Shown one piece after another: positions 8,356-14,756 of a stretch of 16,076 nt of DNA. A program made the position numbers and the translations under genes. A model generated the notes under the pieces. That model was not told the origin of the DNA, searched no databases, and worked only from the letters and a program-made list of their open reading frames with translations. This DNA comes from a virus (taxonomy: Duplodnaviria; Heunggongvirae; Uroviricota; Caudoviricetes), in the IMG/VR virus record IMGVR_UViG_3300028454_001165, positions 64,001 to 80,076 of that record; one strand, written 5' to 3'. Each line of letters opens with the position of its first letter. The first letter of the stretch is position 1.

Positions 8356-8395
8356 AGACTTCAATAAATATTTCATAAAATCAAAAGGAGAAACT

Positions 8396-8722
8396 ATGAC
8401 TTACGGAGCGCTAAACAATGCCGTGCCTGTGCTGAATAAGCTTGTCTTGCAGAATCTGAGGCTCAGGCAGGCGTATCAGCTGACAAAAATAGCGAAGCGG
8501 GTCAATGACGAGCTCGCTTTTTTTAACGCAAAGTATCAGGAGATCATGAACGGCGACTTCCCTGACGACGAGAAAATCAAAATGATGAACGAGCTTCTGA
8601 ATTTTGAGGTCGAATGGGATGTTGAACCGCTTGTTTTCTCAGTTAACGACGATCTCATTCTGTCTGCTTCCGATCTTGAAATGGGCCGGGGGCTGGTTGA
8701 GATAAGGGAAGAACCAACCTAA
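8396..8722 (+). CDS. Small helical phage protein of the tail region (possible chaperone)
   Basis: 108 aa with SD AAGGAG. The helical pattern LNKLVLQNL.L..AY.L.KIAKRVNDEL resembles small proteins that commonly follow fibre genes in Bacillota phages. Function not assignable. Confidence 0.6.
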   Translation: MTYGALNNAVPVLNKLVLQNLRLRQAYQLTKIAKRVNDELAFFNAKYQEIMNGDFPDDEKIKMMNELLNFEVEWDVEPLVFSVNDDLILSASDLEMGRGLVEIREEPT

Positions 8723-8745
8723 CACAACAAGGAGGATTTTGAGCT

Positions 8746-9579
8746 ATGGGAAAATTCAACACTTACCCGGCGGCGGACAGGCTTGCCAAAACCGACATTC
8801 TTCTGAAAGACACGTCGGGTTCTACGGATACCAGAAAGATCACGGGCGAGCTGCTTGCGAGCGATCTTCTCGGTATGATCTCCGCGGACATGCACAGAAA
8901 CGTATATCGCGGCAAGAATCTCGGCACGTCTCTCACGGCGTCGCAGAAGACGGCGATTTCCAGTGGCACGTTCGACGATATTTTCATCGGCGACTACTGG
9001 ACGATCGGCGGGAAAAGCTACGCGGTCGCGGATATGGACTACTGGTATAATCACGGGGATACCGTATTCACGAAGCATCATCTCGTTCTGATCCCGACCA
9101 CCAACATGTACAACGCGAAGATGAACGAGACGAACATCACGACCGGCGCCTATATCGGCTCGGCGATGTACACCGGCGAATACACGAGCGACGAGGAAGT
9201 AAAGGGACTTACCCCCGCCAGAACAGAAATCGCGACGGCTTTCGGGGAGAATCTCCTTACCCACAGAGAGTATCTTGAAAACGCGGTTACGGACGGCATC
9301 GCTACAGCCGGAGCATGGGTCGATTTTACGGTCGATCTGATGTCCGAGACGATGGTCTACGGTCACAGAATCAGATCCACCGGAACAGTTGCCTGCAACT
9401 CCAAGTCCCAGCTCGCACTCTTCAGACTCAAGCCGAACTTCCTCGGAAGAAGCTCTGTATGGCTGTGCGATGTCGTTTCTGCGACCAACTTCGCCCGTGT
9501 CGACAGCTATGGCGCGGCGAGCGGCAACAACGCGTCGAACAGCCTTGGGGTTCGTCCGGTCTTCGCTGTTGGAGTGTAA
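8746..9579 (+). CDS. DGR target protein with C-terminal variable region (predicted C-type-lectin-like fold; likely receptor-binding tail protein)
   Basis: 277 aa with SD AAGGAGG. The C-terminus WLCDVVSATNFARVDSYGAASGNNASNSLGVRPVFAVGV contains the VR and the typical GVRP ending. The N-terminus FNTYPAADRLAKTDILL...TRKIT resembles short fibre-attachment motifs. Confidence 0.9.
   Translation: MGKFNTYPAADRLAKTDILLKDTSGSTDTRKITGELLASDLLGMISADMHRNVYRGKNLGTSLTASQKTAISSGTFDDIFIGDYWTIGGKSYAVADMDYWYNHGDTVFTKHHLVLIPTTNMYNAKMNETNITTGAYIGSAMYTGEYTSDEEVKGLTPARTEIATAFGENLLTHREYLENAVTDGIATAGAWVDFTVDLMSETMVYGHRIRSTGTVACNSKSQLALFRLKPNFLGRSSVWLCDVVSATNFARVDSYGAASGNNASNSLGVRPVFAVGV
9474..9559 (+). repeat. DGR variable repeat (VR) with 3' IMH-like GGGGTTCGTCC
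   Basis: Ungapped match to 10635-10720 (offset 1161). Mismatches at TR adenines: 9496, 9497, 9502, 9506, 9508, 9514, 9515, 9521, 9523, 9524, 9544, 9545, 9558. One non-A mismatch at 9516. Confidence 0.97.
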
Positions 9580-9586
9580 ACCCCGA

Positions 9587-9613
9587 GACCCCTCGTGGGT
9601 CGAGGCGCTTTTT
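9587..9613 (+). other. GC-rich hairpin downstream of VR (candidate DGR target-recognition hairpin and/or weak terminator)
   Basis: GACCC-ctcgt-GGGTC (9587-9601) or the alternative CCTCG-tgggt-CGAGG (9591-9605), followed by cgcTTTTT. Lies 8 nt after the target stop codon. Confidence 0.6.
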
Positions 9614-9657
9614 GAAAAATCCGTAAACAACTACTCAGAAGGGAGATTTACTGAATC

Positions 9658-9975
9658 ATGAATGAAGAGCTTTATACCCTGACTCTCGCGGACGGCACGG
9701 TAATCGAAAACGTCGCCAGAAACGGCGATAACTATATCGTGACCGGGGCCGTCGATACGTCGGTCTTTGAAGACAACTGCGTGCCTCTTACGATTTCCGA
9801 CGGAGAAAATGAGGAAATCCATGAGAATGCGGTCTTCGTGCAGGCACAGGCGCACGGAAATGAAACGTGGCTTGTGTTCCGCGATCTCGGAGCGGCCGAG
9901 CTTCGCGAAATGAGGCTGAGAGCTGACGTGGATTATGTCGCTATGATGGCGGATATCGAACTGGAGGTGGAATAA
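9658..9975 (+). CDS. Acidic phage protein, probable tail-fibre assembly chaperone (XkdW-like position)
   Basis: 105 aa ending ADVDYVAMMADIEL, a pattern typical of proteins immediately upstream of XkdX-family genes. Its stop overlaps the next ATG (TAATG). Confidence 0.6.
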   Translation: MNEELYTLTLADGTVIENVARNGDNYIVTGAVDTSVFEDNCVPLTISDGENEEIHENAVFVQAQAHGNETWLVFRDLGAAELREMRLRADVDYVAMMADIELEVE

Positions 9976-10118
9976 TGGAACATTCTGCAAAATTCGAGAA
10001 GGTAAAGGCTTACTATAAGTCTGGCCTCTGGAACATCACCAAGGTGAGAAACGCCGTCGTGAAGGGATGGATCACCGAAGCTGAGTTCGAGGAAATCACA
10101 GGAATTACCTACGAATGA
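9975..10118 (+). CDS. XkdX-family small phage protein (47 aa; not in the ORF track)
   Basis: Hand translation: MEHSAKFEKVKAYYKSGLWNITKVRNAVVKGWITEAEFEEITGITYE, matching the XkdX pattern (Y..GLW...V..AV.KG.IT..E..EITG). SD GGAGG at 9963-9967. Confidence 0.85.
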   Translation: MEHSAKFEKVKAYYKSGLWNITKVRNAVVKGWITEAEFEEITGITYE

Positions 10119-10624
10119 GCGTAATCGTTCCGAAAAGGAAGCTCTCCCGGTACGAAGCGCTGATCTACGCCGAAACGCTGCAAAAAGAGCTGACTGATTT
10201 AATGCTCAGAGATTTCGGGATAAAAGATATGAACCGTATGCTGAGGAATCAGGCGTTTGCAGCGTCCGGCTGTGATATTCGGTCTGAGGAAGAATACAGG
10301 CTGGCCTGTCGGAAAACAGCGTGGCTGTTCAGTGAGATCAAGAAAAGGATCAATTATCTGACCTCTCTGCTCACAGCCAATCTCAGAGCGGCGCATTCGA
10401 GATTTCCGATGACTCTGCATGAATACGAGATCCGGAGGGACTGCCTGAACGGAGCGATCGTCAACTGTGAGCAGATCAAACAGGAACTGCAAAGATCCGT
10501 TGAAATGTTCGCAGTTGACTTAAACGTATACGAACGCTCTATAAAAGCGATCAACACAGAAATTGAGTTGATAAAGTCTTGGCGATCCCGCGATAATAAG
10601 ATCCGAGTAAAGATCAAGGGGTAG
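10115..10624 (+). CDS. avd: DGR accessory variability determinant (Avd-like four-helix-bundle protein)
   Basis: 169 aa, basic and helical, immediately 5' of TR. Avd-family pattern MSV...R..S.YE / FP....E...RR.....AI..C..I..EL / E..LIK.WR. Start overlaps the XkdX stop (ATGA). Confidence 0.85.
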   Translation: MSVIVPKRKLSRYEALIYAETLQKELTDLMLRDFGIKDMNRMLRNQAFAASGCDIRSEEEYRLACRKTAWLFSEIKKRINYLTSLLTANLRAAHSRFPMTLHEYEIRRDCLNGAIVNCEQIKQELQRSVEMFAVDLNVYERSIKAINTEIELIKSWRSRDNKIRVKIKG

Positions 10625-10634
10625 TGTCTATTTG

Positions 10635-10720
10635 CGTTTCTGCGACCAACTTCGCCAATGTCAACAACAATGGCAATGCGAACAACAACAACGCGTCGAA
10701 CAGCAATGGGGTTCGTCCAG
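10635..10720 (+). ncRNA. DGR template repeat (TR)
   Basis: Intergenic between avd and RT, rich in AAC/AAT triplets (12 AAY codons in the target's frame), identical to VR at all non-A positions except one. Confidence 0.96.
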
Positions 10721-10824
10721 ATTCTCTGCCAACAACAGGGAAGGAGACATTATCAATTCCCGGAAGGGATGAAAAACAAAGCCGGACGTAATTTACTACG
10801 GTAAGTATTACTATAACGGTTAAT
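10721..10824 (+). ncRNA. Structured TR-RT spacer (candidate 3' part of the DGR RNA)
   Basis: Three hairpins read by eye: TTCTCTG/CAGGGAA (10722-10742), TCCC-GGAA-GGGA with a GNRA loop (10758-10769), and TAAT-TTAC-TACG-GTAA-gt-ATTA with a cUNCGg loop (10789-10810). Confidence 0.55.
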
Positions 10825-12102
10825 ATGGCAACAAAATACGAAGACCTTATTTGCGACGCCAATGTTCTTTATAAGGCCTACAAGGCCTCGGTCAAGGGCA
10901 GTAAGTGGAAAGAATCCACTCAGAAGTTCATGCTCAATTTTCTGAGCTATATTTTCGAGCTTCTTGACAAGCTCGTGACGCGGACATATGAAAACGGTCC
11001 GACCGATGAGTTTGAACTGCATGAACGAGGCCGGATCAGGCCTATCACAAGTCTGTGCGTATCGGACAGAATTATCCGTCACGTTCTCTGCGACGAGGTG
11101 TTTCTGCCGGAAGTGCGGAAGAAGATCATCTACGACAACGGAGCATCCATCAACGGGCGCGGATTGGCTCATTCCAGAAAGAGATTTGAAGTACATCTGC
11201 GCAGGTACTTCAAAGAATATGGAAACAATGGATACATCCTGTTCGGTGACTTCTCCAAATTCTATGATAATATCGTACATGAGATCGCAAAACGCGAATT
11301 GCTCAAACTGGTTGACGACGATGAATTTGTAGAGTGGCTGCTGACTTTGATATTTAACGGTTTCAGAGTTGACGTCTCTTTCATGACAGATGATGAATAT
11401 TCGAAGTGCATGACTTCGTGTTTCAACAAGCTGGATTACCGAGAAATTCCAAAGAGCGAACTGACCGGCGAGAAATACATGGAGAAATCGGTCAACATAG
11501 GAGATCAGCTGTCACAGATTATCGGAGTTTATTACCCATATAGGATCGACAACTATGTCAAATACGTCCGAAGTCAAAAGTATTACGGGAGATACATGGA
11601 TGACTTCTATATCATGAATCCGTCAAAAGAAGCGCTTGCAGATATTATGGACCACATCAAAATCATTGCGAGTGAGCTGGGAATACATATCAACGATAAG
11701 AAAACAAGAATCGTAAAGATCAAAGGGCCCTACCGTTACCTCCAATTTCGTTATGAATTGCTCGATAACGGAAAGATTGTTGTAAAAATCAATCAGAAGC
11801 GCGTGACGTGTATGAGGCAAAAGCTGAAAAAGCTGGCTGCGAAACTTGCTCGCGGTGAAAGAAAATATGAAAATATTGAAGGCATGTTCAGAGGATGGAT
11901 GTGCGAATTCTATAAATATATGTCAAAAGAACAGAGAAAGAATATGCTGTCTTTGTATGAGGATTTATTCAAGAAAACAATTCGGATCATAAAGAAGCCG
12001 AATAATAAGAACAAGATGATCATTGAAGACAGAAACGATGTTCAAAAGGAGGTATCACAGTATGGCTCTGACAATAAAGAAGGTCACAATGCCAGCGGAT
12101 AA
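10825..12102 (+). CDS. DGR reverse transcriptase
   Basis: 425 aa. RT motifs ERGRIRPI, DRIIRH, DFSKFYDNIVH, the DGR-type IGxxxSQ motif (IGDQLSQ, 11497-11517) and catalytic YMDD (11593-11604). Adjacent to TR and avd. Confidence 0.97.
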   Translation: MATKYEDLICDANVLYKAYKASVKGSKWKESTQKFMLNFLSYIFELLDKLVTRTYENGPTDEFELHERGRIRPITSLCVSDRIIRHVLCDEVFLPEVRKKIIYDNGASINGRGLAHSRKRFEVHLRRYFKEYGNNGYILFGDFSKFYDNIVHEIAKRELLKLVDDDEFVEWLLTLIFNGFRVDVSFMTDDEYSKCMTSCFNKLDYREIPKSELTGEKYMEKSVNIGDQLSQIIGVYYPYRIDNYVKYVRSQKYYGRYMDDFYIMNPSKEALADIMDHIKIIASELGIHINDKKTRIVKIKGPYRYLQFRYELLDNGKIVVKINQKRVTCMRQKLKKLAAKLARGERKYENIEGMFRGWMCEFYKYMSKEQRKNMLSLYEDLFKKTIRIIKKPNNKNKMIIEDRNDVQKEVSQYGSDNKEGHNASG

Positions 12103-13285
12103 AGTACCCATAAAGTGCCCGTATACAATGACGCCGACAAGAATCGTCATCCACAATACGGCGAATGACGCCAGCGCGCTGAATGAAATCAAATACATGC
12201 AGTCCAACAATAATCAGGTTTCCTTTCATTATGCCGTTGACGATAAGATGGCTGTGCAGGGGATCGAGCTTTGGCGGAACGCATGGCACGCCGGAGACGG
12301 CGGAAGCGAGAAAAGCCTCGGAAATCGGCAGGGAATTGCCATCGAGATCTGTTATTCCAAGTCCGGCGGCGAGCGGTTTATCAAGGCCGAACAGAACGCC
12401 GCAGAACTTGCCGCGCAGCTTTTGATCGATTTCGGCTGGGGGCTCGATAAAATCACGAAGCATCAGGATTACTCCGGCAAATACTGTCCGCACAGGACGC
12501 TTGACATGGGCTGGGATCGGTTTGTAAAAATGGTCGAAGAGAAACGCAACGCTCTGCTCAAAGCGAACAAAGCCGCGGATGTGACCAAAACGACGCTGAA
12601 CGGCTATACGATCGAGCGGGCAAAAGACTTCTCCATCCTGTACTGGGACAAGTCCAAGAAGAAGGGAACCGCACAGTCTTACATCAACGGAGGATTCTTC
12701 GGAGTTTACAAAGAGGGTAACATAACATTTACCCTGCCTGTCGGAAACCTCATTTGCGATGTGATCCCGGACAGTCGGCTTGTCTATTCGGTTCAGAAGT
12801 ACTGGAAGCCTTATGTGAGCGGCGGAAAATTCCGTTACGGAACCGCTGACAATGTTTCGGGTCAGTTCCGTGGAAAGAAGGTCACGACGCTGGTTCTTCC
12901 GACAAACGGAGCTCCCTATGTGGACGAGCTGTCCGCTGCTCCCGTTTCCTCGCGCTATGCCATTTCCGGCATTCCGGTCATTCGGAATGGGGTGGATGTT
13001 AGTTACAACAGTTTCGTCAAACCTCAGGGCTGGGACGATTCGCCTTTCTATGCGACGAGCCGTAATTTCATCGGGCTGAAGGGAACGTCTCTGTGGATCG
13101 TCACGGGAACTTCGAAAACCGCAAATTTCGTTGCCACATCGGAAGTTTATGAAAAGATCAAAGACTTTGGATTCAACGATCTGATCGCGCTGGACGGCGG
13201 AGGCTCTTACTACCACAAGTATGAAGGAAAGGCGGCCTTTGTCTGGAGCGACCGGGATGTCAGCAATCTGGTGGCGTTCGGATGA
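12062..13285 (+). CDS. Endolysin: N-acetylmuramoyl-L-alanine amidase (Amidase_2, XlyA/CwlA-like) fused to a phosphodiester-glycosidase (NAGPA-like) domain
   Basis: Start reassigned to ATG 12062 (SD AGGAGG at 12047-12052), giving 407 aa. Zn-amidase motifs IHNT, AWHAGDG, IEIC, KHQD, KYCP. C-terminal INGGFF and ALDGGGS motifs of the NAGPA/DUF2233 family. Confidence 0.88.
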   Translation: MALTIKKVTMPADKVPIKCPYTMTPTRIVIHNTANDASALNEIKYMQSNNNQVSFHYAVDDKMAVQGIELWRNAWHAGDGGSEKSLGNRQGIAIEICYSKSGGERFIKAEQNAAELAAQLLIDFGWGLDKITKHQDYSGKYCPHRTLDMGWDRFVKMVEEKRNALLKANKAADVTKTTLNGYTIERAKDFSILYWDKSKKKGTAQSYINGGFFGVYKEGNITFTLPVGNLICDVIPDSRLVYSVQKYWKPYVSGGKFRYGTADNVSGQFRGKKVTTLVLPTNGAPYVDELSAAPVSSRYAISGIPVIRNGVDVSYNSFVKPQGWDDSPFYATSRNFIGLKGTSLWIVTGTSKTANFVATSEVYEKIKDFGFNDLIALDGGGSYYHKYEGKAAFVWSDRDVSNLVAFG

Positions 13286-13641
13286 AGAAAGATACGGTGC
13301 TTTGGGCGCGGCAGTACTCCAAGCGTCTGATTACATTTCTGCTCGCGGCGTGGGCCATCGGAGCCGTGATCGGGGTAATCTATGAATTCATACGTCTCAT
13401 TGCGGCCCCGGAGATGGCTTCTATGGATTCCTTCTATATTTATCTCGCGGTTCCGTTGACGTGCGGGATCCCGTCTTATGTGATCCCGAATGTTTTCCTC
13501 AACAAGGAAAAGGTGCGGCAGGGGTACGATCCGGCATACGATTTGAAATATCTTGAAAAAGAAGACATGACCGGAGAAGGGATCGGAGAACCGAACGAAG
13601 GCATGGAAACCGCAATCGAGCAGGTATCGATGGATATTTGA
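13282..13641 (+). CDS. Membrane protein with two predicted TM helices (holin-like or lysis accessory)
   Basis: 119 aa with hydrophobic stretches LITFLLAAWAIGAVIGVIY and FYIYLAVPLTCGIPSYVIP and an acidic tail. ATGA overlap with the endolysin stop. Confidence 0.6.
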   Translation: MKKDTVLWARQYSKRLITFLLAAWAIGAVIGVIYEFIRLIAAPEMASMDSFYIYLAVPLTCGIPSYVIPNVFLNKEKVRQGYDPAYDLKYLEKEDMTGEGIGEPNEGMETAIEQVSMDI

Positions 13642-13685
13642 AACAAACGTGGAAAGGACGCTGAACAGCGCACGGGTATATCACT

Positions 13686-14119
13686 TTGAAAGAATTTCTG
13701 CTTGCCTTGCTCGGAGGCGGCGTGGCTGTAACGGTTGTCGAAACAATAAAAGAGGCAATCGCCTGGCATCGGAACCGTAAGGCTCAGCTCGAAGACAGAA
13801 GGGAAGAGGAGCTGAAGCGAAAAACGGAAGAAAGAATCCGAAATCTCGAAACAACTGTAGAGAAAGTCGAAAAAATGGTGATGATCCTTCTGGAAAGCCA
13901 AAAGAATTCACTATTTGACCGGATACAGTATCTTGCAAGAAATACATTGCGGAAGGTGCGATCGATGTGGACGACCTTCGGGCATTGAACGCGCTCTACC
14001 GGAGTTATCACGGTTACACGGACGATCACGGTGTGTATCACGAAGGCGTCGGTGGAAACGGCGATCTTGAAGACCTGATGAAGATCGTTCGCAAGCTGCC
14101 GCTCAAAGATTTGAAATGA
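13686..14119 (+). pseudogene. Frameshifted holin-associated membrane/coiled-coil protein (~144 aa if repaired)
   Basis: ORF 13686-13988 has an N-terminal TM and ...DRIQYLAR. A -1 shift at AGAAAT (13938-13943) continues as KYIAEGAIDVDDLRALNALYRSYH...GVGGNGDLEDLMKIVRKLPLKDLK* (stop 14117-14119), the C-terminus typical of this lysis-module family (Y...G.I..DDL...Y..YH...GGNG....M..V..LP). Confidence 0.72.
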
Positions 14120-14132
14120 CGGAGGAATCAAA

Positions 14133-14387
14133 ATGAATTCTGAATTTGTAAAGAAATTCCTGTCGAGGAAGTTTCTCGTGTCTCTCATCGGAATGATCGT
14201 CGGGCTGGCGATCGCTCTCGGTGCGGACAGTTCCGAAATCATGCAGGTTGCCGGAGCAATTACGTCCGCCGTATCCGCAGTCAGCTACATTTTCGGCGAG
14301 GCAAAGATCGACGCGGCCGCTGTGGAGCCGATTCCGCTTCTTCCCGCTCCCAAGAGCGATTCGGATGAAGTAAACGACTGGAAATGA
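14133..14387 (+). CDS. Holin-like protein (two TM helices)
   Basis: 84 aa with SD GGAGG at 14121-14125. KKFLSRKFL motif followed by two hydrophobic helices; located in the lysis module. Confidence 0.72.
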   Translation: MNSEFVKKFLSRKFLVSLIGMIVGLAIALGADSSEIMQVAGAITSAVSAVSYIFGEAKIDAAAVEPIPLLPAPKSDSDEVNDWK

Positions 14388-14399
14388 TATTTGAAGAAG

Positions 14400-14430
14400 A
14401 GCCGCTTGGGGTATTCTCGAGCGGCTTTTT
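14400..14430 (+). terminator. Rho-independent terminator ending the late operon
   Basis: AGCCGCTTGGG-gtatt-CTCGAGCGGCT, an 11-bp stem with 2 G-U pairs, followed by TTTT. Further T-rich sequence downstream and a purine/A-rich 5' flank suggest it may be bidirectional. Confidence 0.85.
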
Positions 14431-14727: not shown

Positions 14728-14756
14728 TTGACAAAGGAGACCATGAGTGGTATAAT
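14728..14756 (+). promoter_or_regulatory. Consensus sigma-70/sigma-A promoter upstream of int
   Basis: TTGACA (14728-14733), 17-nt spacer, TATAAT (14751-14756), plus the extended -10 TG at 14748-14749. Confidence 0.88.

Follow-up and report, generated by a model that had tools for sequence, protein, structure and literature searches.

Gene content of the late operon and its retroelement

The 16,076-nucleotide (nt) stretch analyzed here, positions 64,001 to 80,076 of the IMG/VR virus record IMGVR_UViG_3300028454_001165 and hereafter called the window, appears from its sequence to carry the 3′-terminal part of the late operon of a prophage, including a complete and apparently active diversity-generating retroelement (DGR). 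An uninterrupted run of plus-strand genes begins with the tape measure protein gene (TMP, to position 2728), p152, p911, p807, and p108 and then continues with a 277-amino-acid (aa) target gene, p105, XkdX, a 169-aa open reading frame (ORF) designated avd, 200 nt of non-coding DNA, the reverse transcriptase (RT) gene, and an amidase endolysin. The distal genes p119, p100, and p84 lie on the same strand and extend to 14387. Up to the terminator at 14396–14430, the gaps between coding genes range from −41 to +78 nt, the sole exception being the 200 nt occupied by the template repeat (TR) and a spacer. Neighbouring genes of the operon routinely overlap by 1 or 4 nt (−1 at TMP/p152, p152/p911, and p105/XkdX, and −4 at endolysin/p119), and among the overlaps only the 41-nt one between RT and endolysin is unusual. 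An earlier note on this DNA had placed the avd-TR-RT cassette within a contiguous series of tail and lysis genes; it does lie in such a same-strand run, which ends at the 14396–14430 terminator. The note had further proposed that the cassette was inserted between XkdX and the endolysin and has become locked in place, and it is this proposal that the comparisons with related phages address. Coordinates of all features are collected in Table 1.

The repeats have the properties of a working DGR. Twelve of the 13 core mismatches between the variable repeat (VR1) of the target gene and the TR fall on TR adenines, and over the aligned stretch there are 14 A-to-N and 2 T-to-G differences. VR1 stops 22 nt short of the target gene's stop codon. 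In the VR, GGGGTTCGTCCGG matches GGGGTTCGTCCAG of the TR, as expected of a GC-rich initiation of mutagenic homing site. The RT matches RVT_1 (3e-16) and phrog_1423 (2e-58) and contains the motifs IGDQLSQ (residue 225) and YMDD (residue 257); the motif [ILV]GxxxSQ is diagnostic of DGR-clade RTs. Its start codon is preceded by a weak Shine-Dalgarno (SD) sequence. Both the TR and the spacer between TR and RT are strongly conserved in an alignment of 16 loci (the window and 15 related loci), the conserved pieces of the spacer including GAAGGAGA, a hairpin closing on GGAT, AAAGCC, and then AATTTACTACGGTAA and GGTGAATA right before the RT start. This spacer is probably the priming and RT-binding region of the DGR RNA.

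The ORF immediately upstream of the TR had no Pfam match and no significant PDB sequence match. Its structural model (predicted local distance difference test [pLDDT] score 86) is a helical bundle, for which the best Foldseek E value was 0.14. In a wide search with VIA-align, the model matched 2gsc (Z 14.4), 2rld (Z 13.5), 8ub7_B (Z 12.0), and 4dwl_A (Z 11.8; root-mean-square deviation 2.0 over 106 of 109 residues), all scores that helical bundles can reach by chance. Among natural structures, PF05635-type proteins and Bordetella Avd itself rank highest, and VIA-align was the only method that ranked Avd-family chains first. The isoelectric point (pI) of the protein is 9.53, and Avd proteins have a mean pI of 9.5 ± 0.7 (PMC5758913). 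Given its predicted fold, its charge, and its position, we refer to the protein as Avd-like, with the stated caveat on helical-bundle Z-scores.

The two small genes between target and avd differ in how well they can be assigned. XkdX matches PF09693 over all 40 profile positions (1–40; E = 5e-17; 62.1 bits vs. a cut-off of 23.5). p105 had no match in Pfam or PHROGs, and the suggestion that it is an XkdW-like chaperone is unsupported by either database or by a fold search: its model (pLDDT 74) retrieved only generic beta-barrels with Foldseek, at E values of 0.017 or worse, and no informative PDB match.

No Pfam match was found for the 277-aa target. Its residues 1 to ~69 (8746–8950 of the window) share 41% identity with the N-terminal portion of a 625-aa tail protein from a DGR-free relative (L081:363-548), which looks like a common N-terminal anchor domain whose distal parts have been exchanged.

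A whole-genome search revealed a second variable repeat, VR2, on the same contig, 39.4 kb upstream of the start of the window (G000:C45:136672-136762; L004:1501-1591). It is located at the 3′ end of an ORF of 168 aa, differs from the TR by 20 A-to-N and 1 C-to-T changes, and is a second target inside the same prophage. Full-length homologues of this 168-aa target occur 3–8 kb downstream of RT in L116, L029, and L078. Further VR-like C-terminal segments are found in relatives 1–2 kb downstream of RT, at L045:9952-10092, L119:10242-10364, L120:10149-10271, and L139:7661-7783. Second targets appear to be common in this DGR family, in varying positions. Second, non-adjacent targets have already been described for phage DGRs (PMC5758913).

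Table 1. Features of the DGR module and flanking genes (window coordinates)
Feature	Position	Strand	Basis or remark
p108, last gene of the left flank	8396–8722	+	Nucleotide homology to DGR-free L167 and L168 stops at ~8673
DGR target gene, 277 aa, tail-fibre position	8746–9579	+	VR1 at its 3′ end
VR1	9474–9557	+	84-nt repeat, 85% identical to TR
Small GC hairpin (5-bp stem, 5-nt loop) plus T-run	9591–9605	+	12 nt past target stop; flagged terminator-like
p105, conserved small protein at XkdW position	9658–9975	+	Homologue alignments
XkdX-family protein, 47 aa	9975–10118	+	PF09693, phrog_134
Avd-like accessory protein, 169 aa	10115–10624	+	Fold, charge, position immediately 5′ of TR
Promoter-like site TTGATA-18-GATAAT (10/12), inside avd 3′ end	10568–10597	+	Scan; ~40 nt before TR
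Template repeat (TR)	10635–10718	+	Repeat pairing with VR1
TR-RT spacer	10719–10824	+	Strongly conserved, alignment of 16 loci
DGR reverse transcriptase, 425 aa	10825–12102	+	RVT_1, phrog_1423
Non-conserved RT tail, ~21 codons	12037–12102	+	Last 13 codons and stop are endolysin gene in other frame
Endolysin Shine-Dalgarno AAAGGAGG	12045–12052	+	Also restart of homology to DGR-free endolysin relatives
Endolysin, Amidase_2 and NAGPA-like domain, 407 aa	12062–13285	+	Pfam, PHROGs, homologues
Rest of lysis module (p119, p100, p84)	13282–14387	+	Inherited together with endolysin in relatives
Strong intrinsic terminator (16-bp stem and T-run), end of late operon	14396–14430	+	Terminator scan

Junctions of the module and breaks in homology

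Searching with the RT yielded 16 genomic and 53 viral loci, and a search with a p105 alignment added 80 more. The order target-p105-XkdX-avd-TR-RT recurs in ~65 of the RT-seeded loci and in 78 of the 80 p105-seeded loci, giving a family of ~130 related loci overall that includes a prophage of Hungatella hathewayi DSM 13479 (L013). As judged from these loci, p105 and XkdX co-vary with the DGR and not with the endolysin, and the module in this phage family would always be situated between tail genes and lysis genes.

The junction on the left of the cassette is tight. As the earlier note had observed, the avd start overlaps the XkdX stop, the two sharing the ATGA at 10115–10118 in which TGA is the XkdX stop. 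Since avd has no SD of its own upstream, it is likely expressed by termination-reinitiation coupling from XkdX. The spacing at all 88 distinct XkdX/avd junctions lies between −4 and +2 nt: −4 (ATGA) in 54, −1 (TAATG or TGATG) in 24, and 0 to +2 in 9. Such uniformity points to an old junction that is a property of the whole family.

The junction on the right is of a different kind. The endolysin (67.5 bits to Amidase_2 [PF01510] vs. a cut-off of 26; phrog_3088 amidase, 9e-73) is in the +1 frame relative to RT, and, in agreement with the earlier note, its SD and its ATG at 12062 both lie within RT codons, with the RT stop 41 nt inside the endolysin gene. The start of the endolysin is fixed by 23 homologues, all of which begin M-A/S-L-T/K-I/T-K/R-K. 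We compared 56 distinct RT 3′ ends and found that a conserved ...NKK(L/M)(I/V)xxD(R/K) motif is followed by sequence that differs in both length and composition. Many relatives stop 2–3 codons past the motif, with the next gene 13–26 nt downstream. Many others carry a tail such as SPQEILQEV, in which the codons for QEV or KEV supply the GGAGG of the next gene and the stop touches the next ATG, and some extend 20–160 nt into the next gene. The window RT reads ...IEDRNDVQKEVS, followed by 16 further residues. At the position where the related locus L131 has aaaGGAGGtatcgTAATG, the window has aaaGGAGGtatcacagtATG and thus lacks a stop, so that the frame stays open until a TAA 41 nt inside the endolysin gene. 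Alignment of homologues therefore bears out the idea that the RT ends in a non-conserved read-through tail, here of ~21 residues. Its last 13 codons are dictated by the conserved N terminus of the endolysin in the other frame.

In a type-B relative (a group with a different gene order, described below), the RT ORF (448 aa; L104:4787-6318) extends 133 nt into the p105 homologue. It represents a second, independent RT read-through tail.

Neither side of the RT/endolysin junction is found joined to the other elsewhere. The gene following RT in relatives encodes a 100–120-aa phrog_4105 protein, followed by a Dp-1-type holin, and in none of them is the endolysin of the window present. The 23 relatives of the endolysin (3 viral and 20 metagenomic, 45%–79% identical, mostly accompanied by p119 and p84 partners) each have their own intergenic region ending in the AAAGGAGG SD, and 0 of 23 have RT, avd, XkdX, or p105 upstream. 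The RT/endolysin overlap is thus unique among ~130 RT relatives and 23 endolysin relatives, which argues that this junction is young and lineage-specific.

The flanks indicate how much DNA was exchanged. The closest flank relatives, the DGR-free loci L167 and L168, have p108 (65% aa identity) and the lysis genes. Their nucleotide homology to the window covers 8384–8673 (73%–74% identity) and begins again at 12045 or 12062. Between these breakpoints they carry another, DGR-free block of 3.8 kb that consists of a 672-aa protein gene and four small ORFs. Nucleotide homology to the RT family is over by 11996, and GC content steps from 36%–40% to 50%–54% at ~12050. With flank homology ending in p108 and resuming at the endolysin SD, the exchanged unit is the entire target-p105-XkdX-avd-TR-RT block (~8723–12044, 3.3 kb) and not avd-TR-RT alone.

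We consider it probable that a conserved six-part DGR module, made up of the target with its VR, p105, XkdX, Avd, the TR with its spacer, and RT, was joined as a whole in this lineage to another lysis cassette (amidase endolysin, p119, p100, and p84) and that the 41-nt overlap is a neutral scar of modular recombination. The crossover would most likely have taken place at the ribosome-binding sequence AAAGGAGG, which is present in both partners. Joining would have taken away the usual stop of RT, leaving it to run 13 codons into the endolysin gene to an out-of-frame TAA, and because RT lost its stop in this way, we read the overlap as neutral. Transcription of the module would be by read-through, starting at a late promoter located upstream of the window, and DGR activity would be expected to rise with lytic development.

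Could avd-TR-RT alone instead have been inserted at a pre-existing XkdX/endolysin junction, with both overlaps selected so as to lock the cassette in? Both overlaps are real, and arrangements in which XkdX adjoins lysis genes do exist. In the DGR-free gut phage MT835558.1 (L165), whose XkdX is 60% identical to that of the window, the order is fibre, a 112-aa gene, XkdX, holin, and endolysin, so the order that the earlier note took as standard is indeed observed. In L142, a target with a VR-like end is followed by p105, XkdX, 60 nt, phrog_4105, and holin, the interval from XkdX to the lysis genes being free of any cassette. However, XkdX and p105 track the DGR and not the endolysin, the XkdX-avd junction is old, and the breaks in homology to the DGR-free flank relatives lie at p108 and the endolysin SD. 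The comparison proposed in the earlier note, with phages lacking the DGR, recovers XkdX next to lysis genes in MT835558.1 and, for L167 and L168, places the breaks outside XkdX, which moves with the DGR block. In addition, all 23 relatives with the same endolysin have unchanged lysis genes and no overlap, an outcome that the earlier note had itself named as counting against its proposal, and this endolysin is absent from the RT relatives.

The lock also fares poorly in relatives, where the DGR is readily lost. At least nine carry internally deleted or frameshifted cassettes (L023, L071, L073, L097, L106, L118, L135, L139, and L140), the decay producing fusions such as avd residues 1–32 to RT residues 234–396 in L139 and avd 1–89 to RT 255–397 in L135. 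All nine retain the 5′ end of avd and the 3′ end of RT, as a lock would predict, but these internal deletions also show function to be freely lost, and L108 did lose the RT 3′ end. Because larger deletions would strike essential neighbours, any deletion must spare the translation signals of the adjacent genes; retained ends are therefore weak evidence for a selected lock. A further case is L142, in which XkdX and the lysis genes are separated by 60 nt and by no cassette. We regard insertion followed by locking as quite unlikely in this lineage. L142 itself should not be taken for a DGR-less phage: it is a short contig, its target keeps a VR-like end and a hairpin, and only the interval between XkdX and the lysis genes is cassette-free.

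Over longer timescales, the cassette does seem to have moved separately. In the type-B arrangement (Acutalibacter phage Fontainebleau; L100, L102, and L104), the order is target-avd-TR-RT-p105-XkdX-phrog_4105-holin-endolysin. Between this arrangement and that of the window (type A), identity is 25% for Avd and 38%–39% for RT vs. 42%–45% for the target, 50% for p105, and 52% for XkdX. As the machinery is far more diverged than the structural genes, separate histories are suggested for the avd-TR-RT block and the structural genes. On this deep timescale, the sequences indicate that avd-TR-RT behaves as a block that occupies alternative junctions of the fibre-to-lysis interval, and to this extent the proposal of the earlier note is borne out.

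Another explanation for the overlap is that it is regulatory, with ribosomes terminating on RT either unmasking or occluding the endolysin start and so tying endolysin dosage or timing to RT translation. The position of the endolysin SD and ATG within RT codons would fit such a role, as would the many relatives in which the SD of the next gene resides in the RT tail and stop and start abut. However, RT has a weak SD and is probably translated too little to drive synthesis of the endolysin; the latter is preceded by its own strong SD, as it is in all the DGR-free relatives; and the 41-nt form is seen only in this window. We therefore think a regulatory overlap very unlikely and favour the recombination scar described above.

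Transcription and timing

If the DGR module belongs to the late operon, is the cassette expressed with its neighbours? A scan for sigma-70 promoters and terminators inside the cassette gave nothing above chance, with 8 promoter-like sites vs. 8.9 expected from shuffled sequence, so the statement in the earlier note that the cassette has no clear promoter or terminator stands. No strong terminator was detected ahead of 14396. The early-promoter motif CGCG-N16-TAATGG that has been reported for this phage is absent from the window, and near-matches to it are fewer than expected by chance. Co-transcription is uncontradicted, since the gaps between genes are tiny, no strong terminator precedes 14396, no sigma-70 promoter rises above chance, and CGCG-N16-TAATGG is absent; it is plausible from the sequence that the cassette is co-transcribed with the late genes and follows lytic timing. 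In hankyphage, derepression of the lytic cycle raised DGR activity (PMC12135933). With this precedent, lytic-phase timing of diversification is a reasonable idea, if not a new one.

It is also conceivable that the DGR machinery has its own promoter, upstream of avd or in the avd 3′ end, and is expressed independently of the late genes, in lysogens as well. One promoter-like site, TTGATA-18-GATAAT at 10568–10597, lies ~40 nt before the TR, and its TTGATA is kept in ~10 of 16 relatives. In addition, VR2 is in the early region of the prophage, and the hankyphage DGR is active in uninduced cultures (PMC12135933). Against this, the number of promoter-like sites is at the level of chance, most relatives have GACAAC or GATAAC as their −10 hexamer, and the two hexamers coincide with codons for the conserved residues L-I-K and D-N. 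Moreover, avd lacks an SD and every relative has a tight XkdX/avd junction, features that favour expression of avd from upstream. We judge the site at 10568–10597 to be a chance match and a dedicated promoter to be unlikely; read-through from the late promoter remains the preferred source of DGR transcripts.

The hairpin after VR1 is open to two uses. Guo (2011; PMC3240598) reported that DGR targets require such a downstream hairpin. A 29-nt element containing the hairpin recurs downstream of VR2, there without the T-run, and equivalent hairpins are present in L013, where it is also terminator-like, and in L142. Because it recurs after VR2 without a T-run and because DGR targets need a hairpin of this kind (PMC3240598), we read the element at 9591–9605 as probably in the main a DGR target-site element, possibly with some attenuating effect.

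Several points weigh against the reading of a whole module joined to a new lysis cassette and transcribed by read-through. A crossover at SD microhomology rests on only 8–12 shared bases, and no relative of >80% nucleotide identity was found with which the exchange could be pinned down. A sigma-70 scan is blind to an internal promoter of phage type. Judged from its sequence, the terminator-like hairpin and T-run at 9591–9605 could attenuate read-through into p105-XkdX-avd. Finally, the assignment of Avd draws on fold scores (Z 11.8–14.4) of the size noted above for chance matches between helical bundles.

When all 53 genomes of the genus were searched at the DNA level, none was found to contain this prophage, and XkdX (PF09693) was found in one other genome of the genus only, under the cut-off. 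A DNA search of the phage collection matched only amidase fragments.

Beyond the late operon terminator, a consensus sigma-70 promoter (12/12, with an extended −10 TG) is present at 14728–14756, ahead of the next gene (14805 onward).

Comparison with known systems

The DGR of the window is an ordinary, intact element of architecture B1 and a member of a well-populated gut-phage family. It resembles the DGR of Bordetella phage BPP-1 (mtd-avd-TR-brt), also architecture B1 (Wu et al., 2018, PMC5758913), in its core of avd-like gene, TR, and RT, its upstream target with a C-terminal VR, the adenine-specific TR/VR differences, the GC hairpin downstream of the VR, and its place at the end of the tail gene cluster. 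It differs in having p105 and XkdX between target and avd, with XkdX and avd joined stop to start; in an Avd-like protein that is ~40 residues longer, with an extra helix and no Pfam match; in a hairpin loop of 5 nt instead of a GRNA tetraloop (PMC3240598); and in an RT that enters the lysis genes.

In the Bacillus subtilis prophage PBSX, xkdV, xkdW, and xkdX are followed by lysis genes. The window shares this order of fibre, small protein, XkdX, and lysis genes, as do MT835558.1, L142, and the type-B loci, but here XkdX is set apart from the lysis genes by the 2-kb avd-TR-RT block. Acutalibacter phage Fontainebleau (ON453893.1) and L100, L102, and L104 likewise have a related target, p105, and XkdX and a DGR between tail and lysis genes; in these phages the cassette is between target and p105, so that XkdX adjoins the lysis genes. 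The Bacteroides hankyphage (PMC12135933) is also a temperate gut phage in which a DGR diversifies the tail fibre and becomes more active upon lytic derepression, but the phage, host phylum, and gene layout are unrelated, and an overlap with lysis genes was not described.

In the literature that we searched, no paper paired XkdX with DGRs or DGRs with the term "late operon." The XkdX-avd coupling and the RT tail that contains the ribosome-binding site of the next gene were likewise not found in the searchable literature; both are variations on known phage gene packing. One doubtful extension is that p105 and XkdX are partners of the DGR, with target-p105-XkdX-avd-RT forming a co-adapted "diversify-and-fold" module in which XkdX-avd coupling sets Avd dosage relative to fibre assembly and the RT tail serves as a ribosome-binding platform for the lysis cassette that follows. 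If true, DGR expression would be mechanically tied to the last lytic step.

The value of these findings is descriptive, and the accepted view of DGR function is unchanged by them. They define a large DGR family of gut-Clostridia phages, with ~130 loci and a fixed layout in which p105 and XkdX lie between target and avd and RT adjoins the lysis genes, and show where modules are exchanged. For annotation, an RT that is long and ends in an unusual C-terminal tail is not necessarily an error or a fusion, and neither is an endolysin that seems to start inside RT. The layout also provides a clean natural system for the timing of prophage DGR expression, for which the relatives supply a natural series of cassette deletions.

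We also note several minor features. The window had no Rfam family matches. In L180 (1169–3319), the endolysin homologue is interrupted at residue 142 by ~900 nt of extra DNA, possibly an intron or small mobile element within the amidase gene. A single exact copy of TTGATATTT lies inside RT at 11347, and near-copies occur at the stop codons of p119 (13631–13639, TGGATATTT) and p84 (14384–14392, ATGATATTT). GATATT is present 14 times on the plus strand of the window vs. 5 times on the minus strand.

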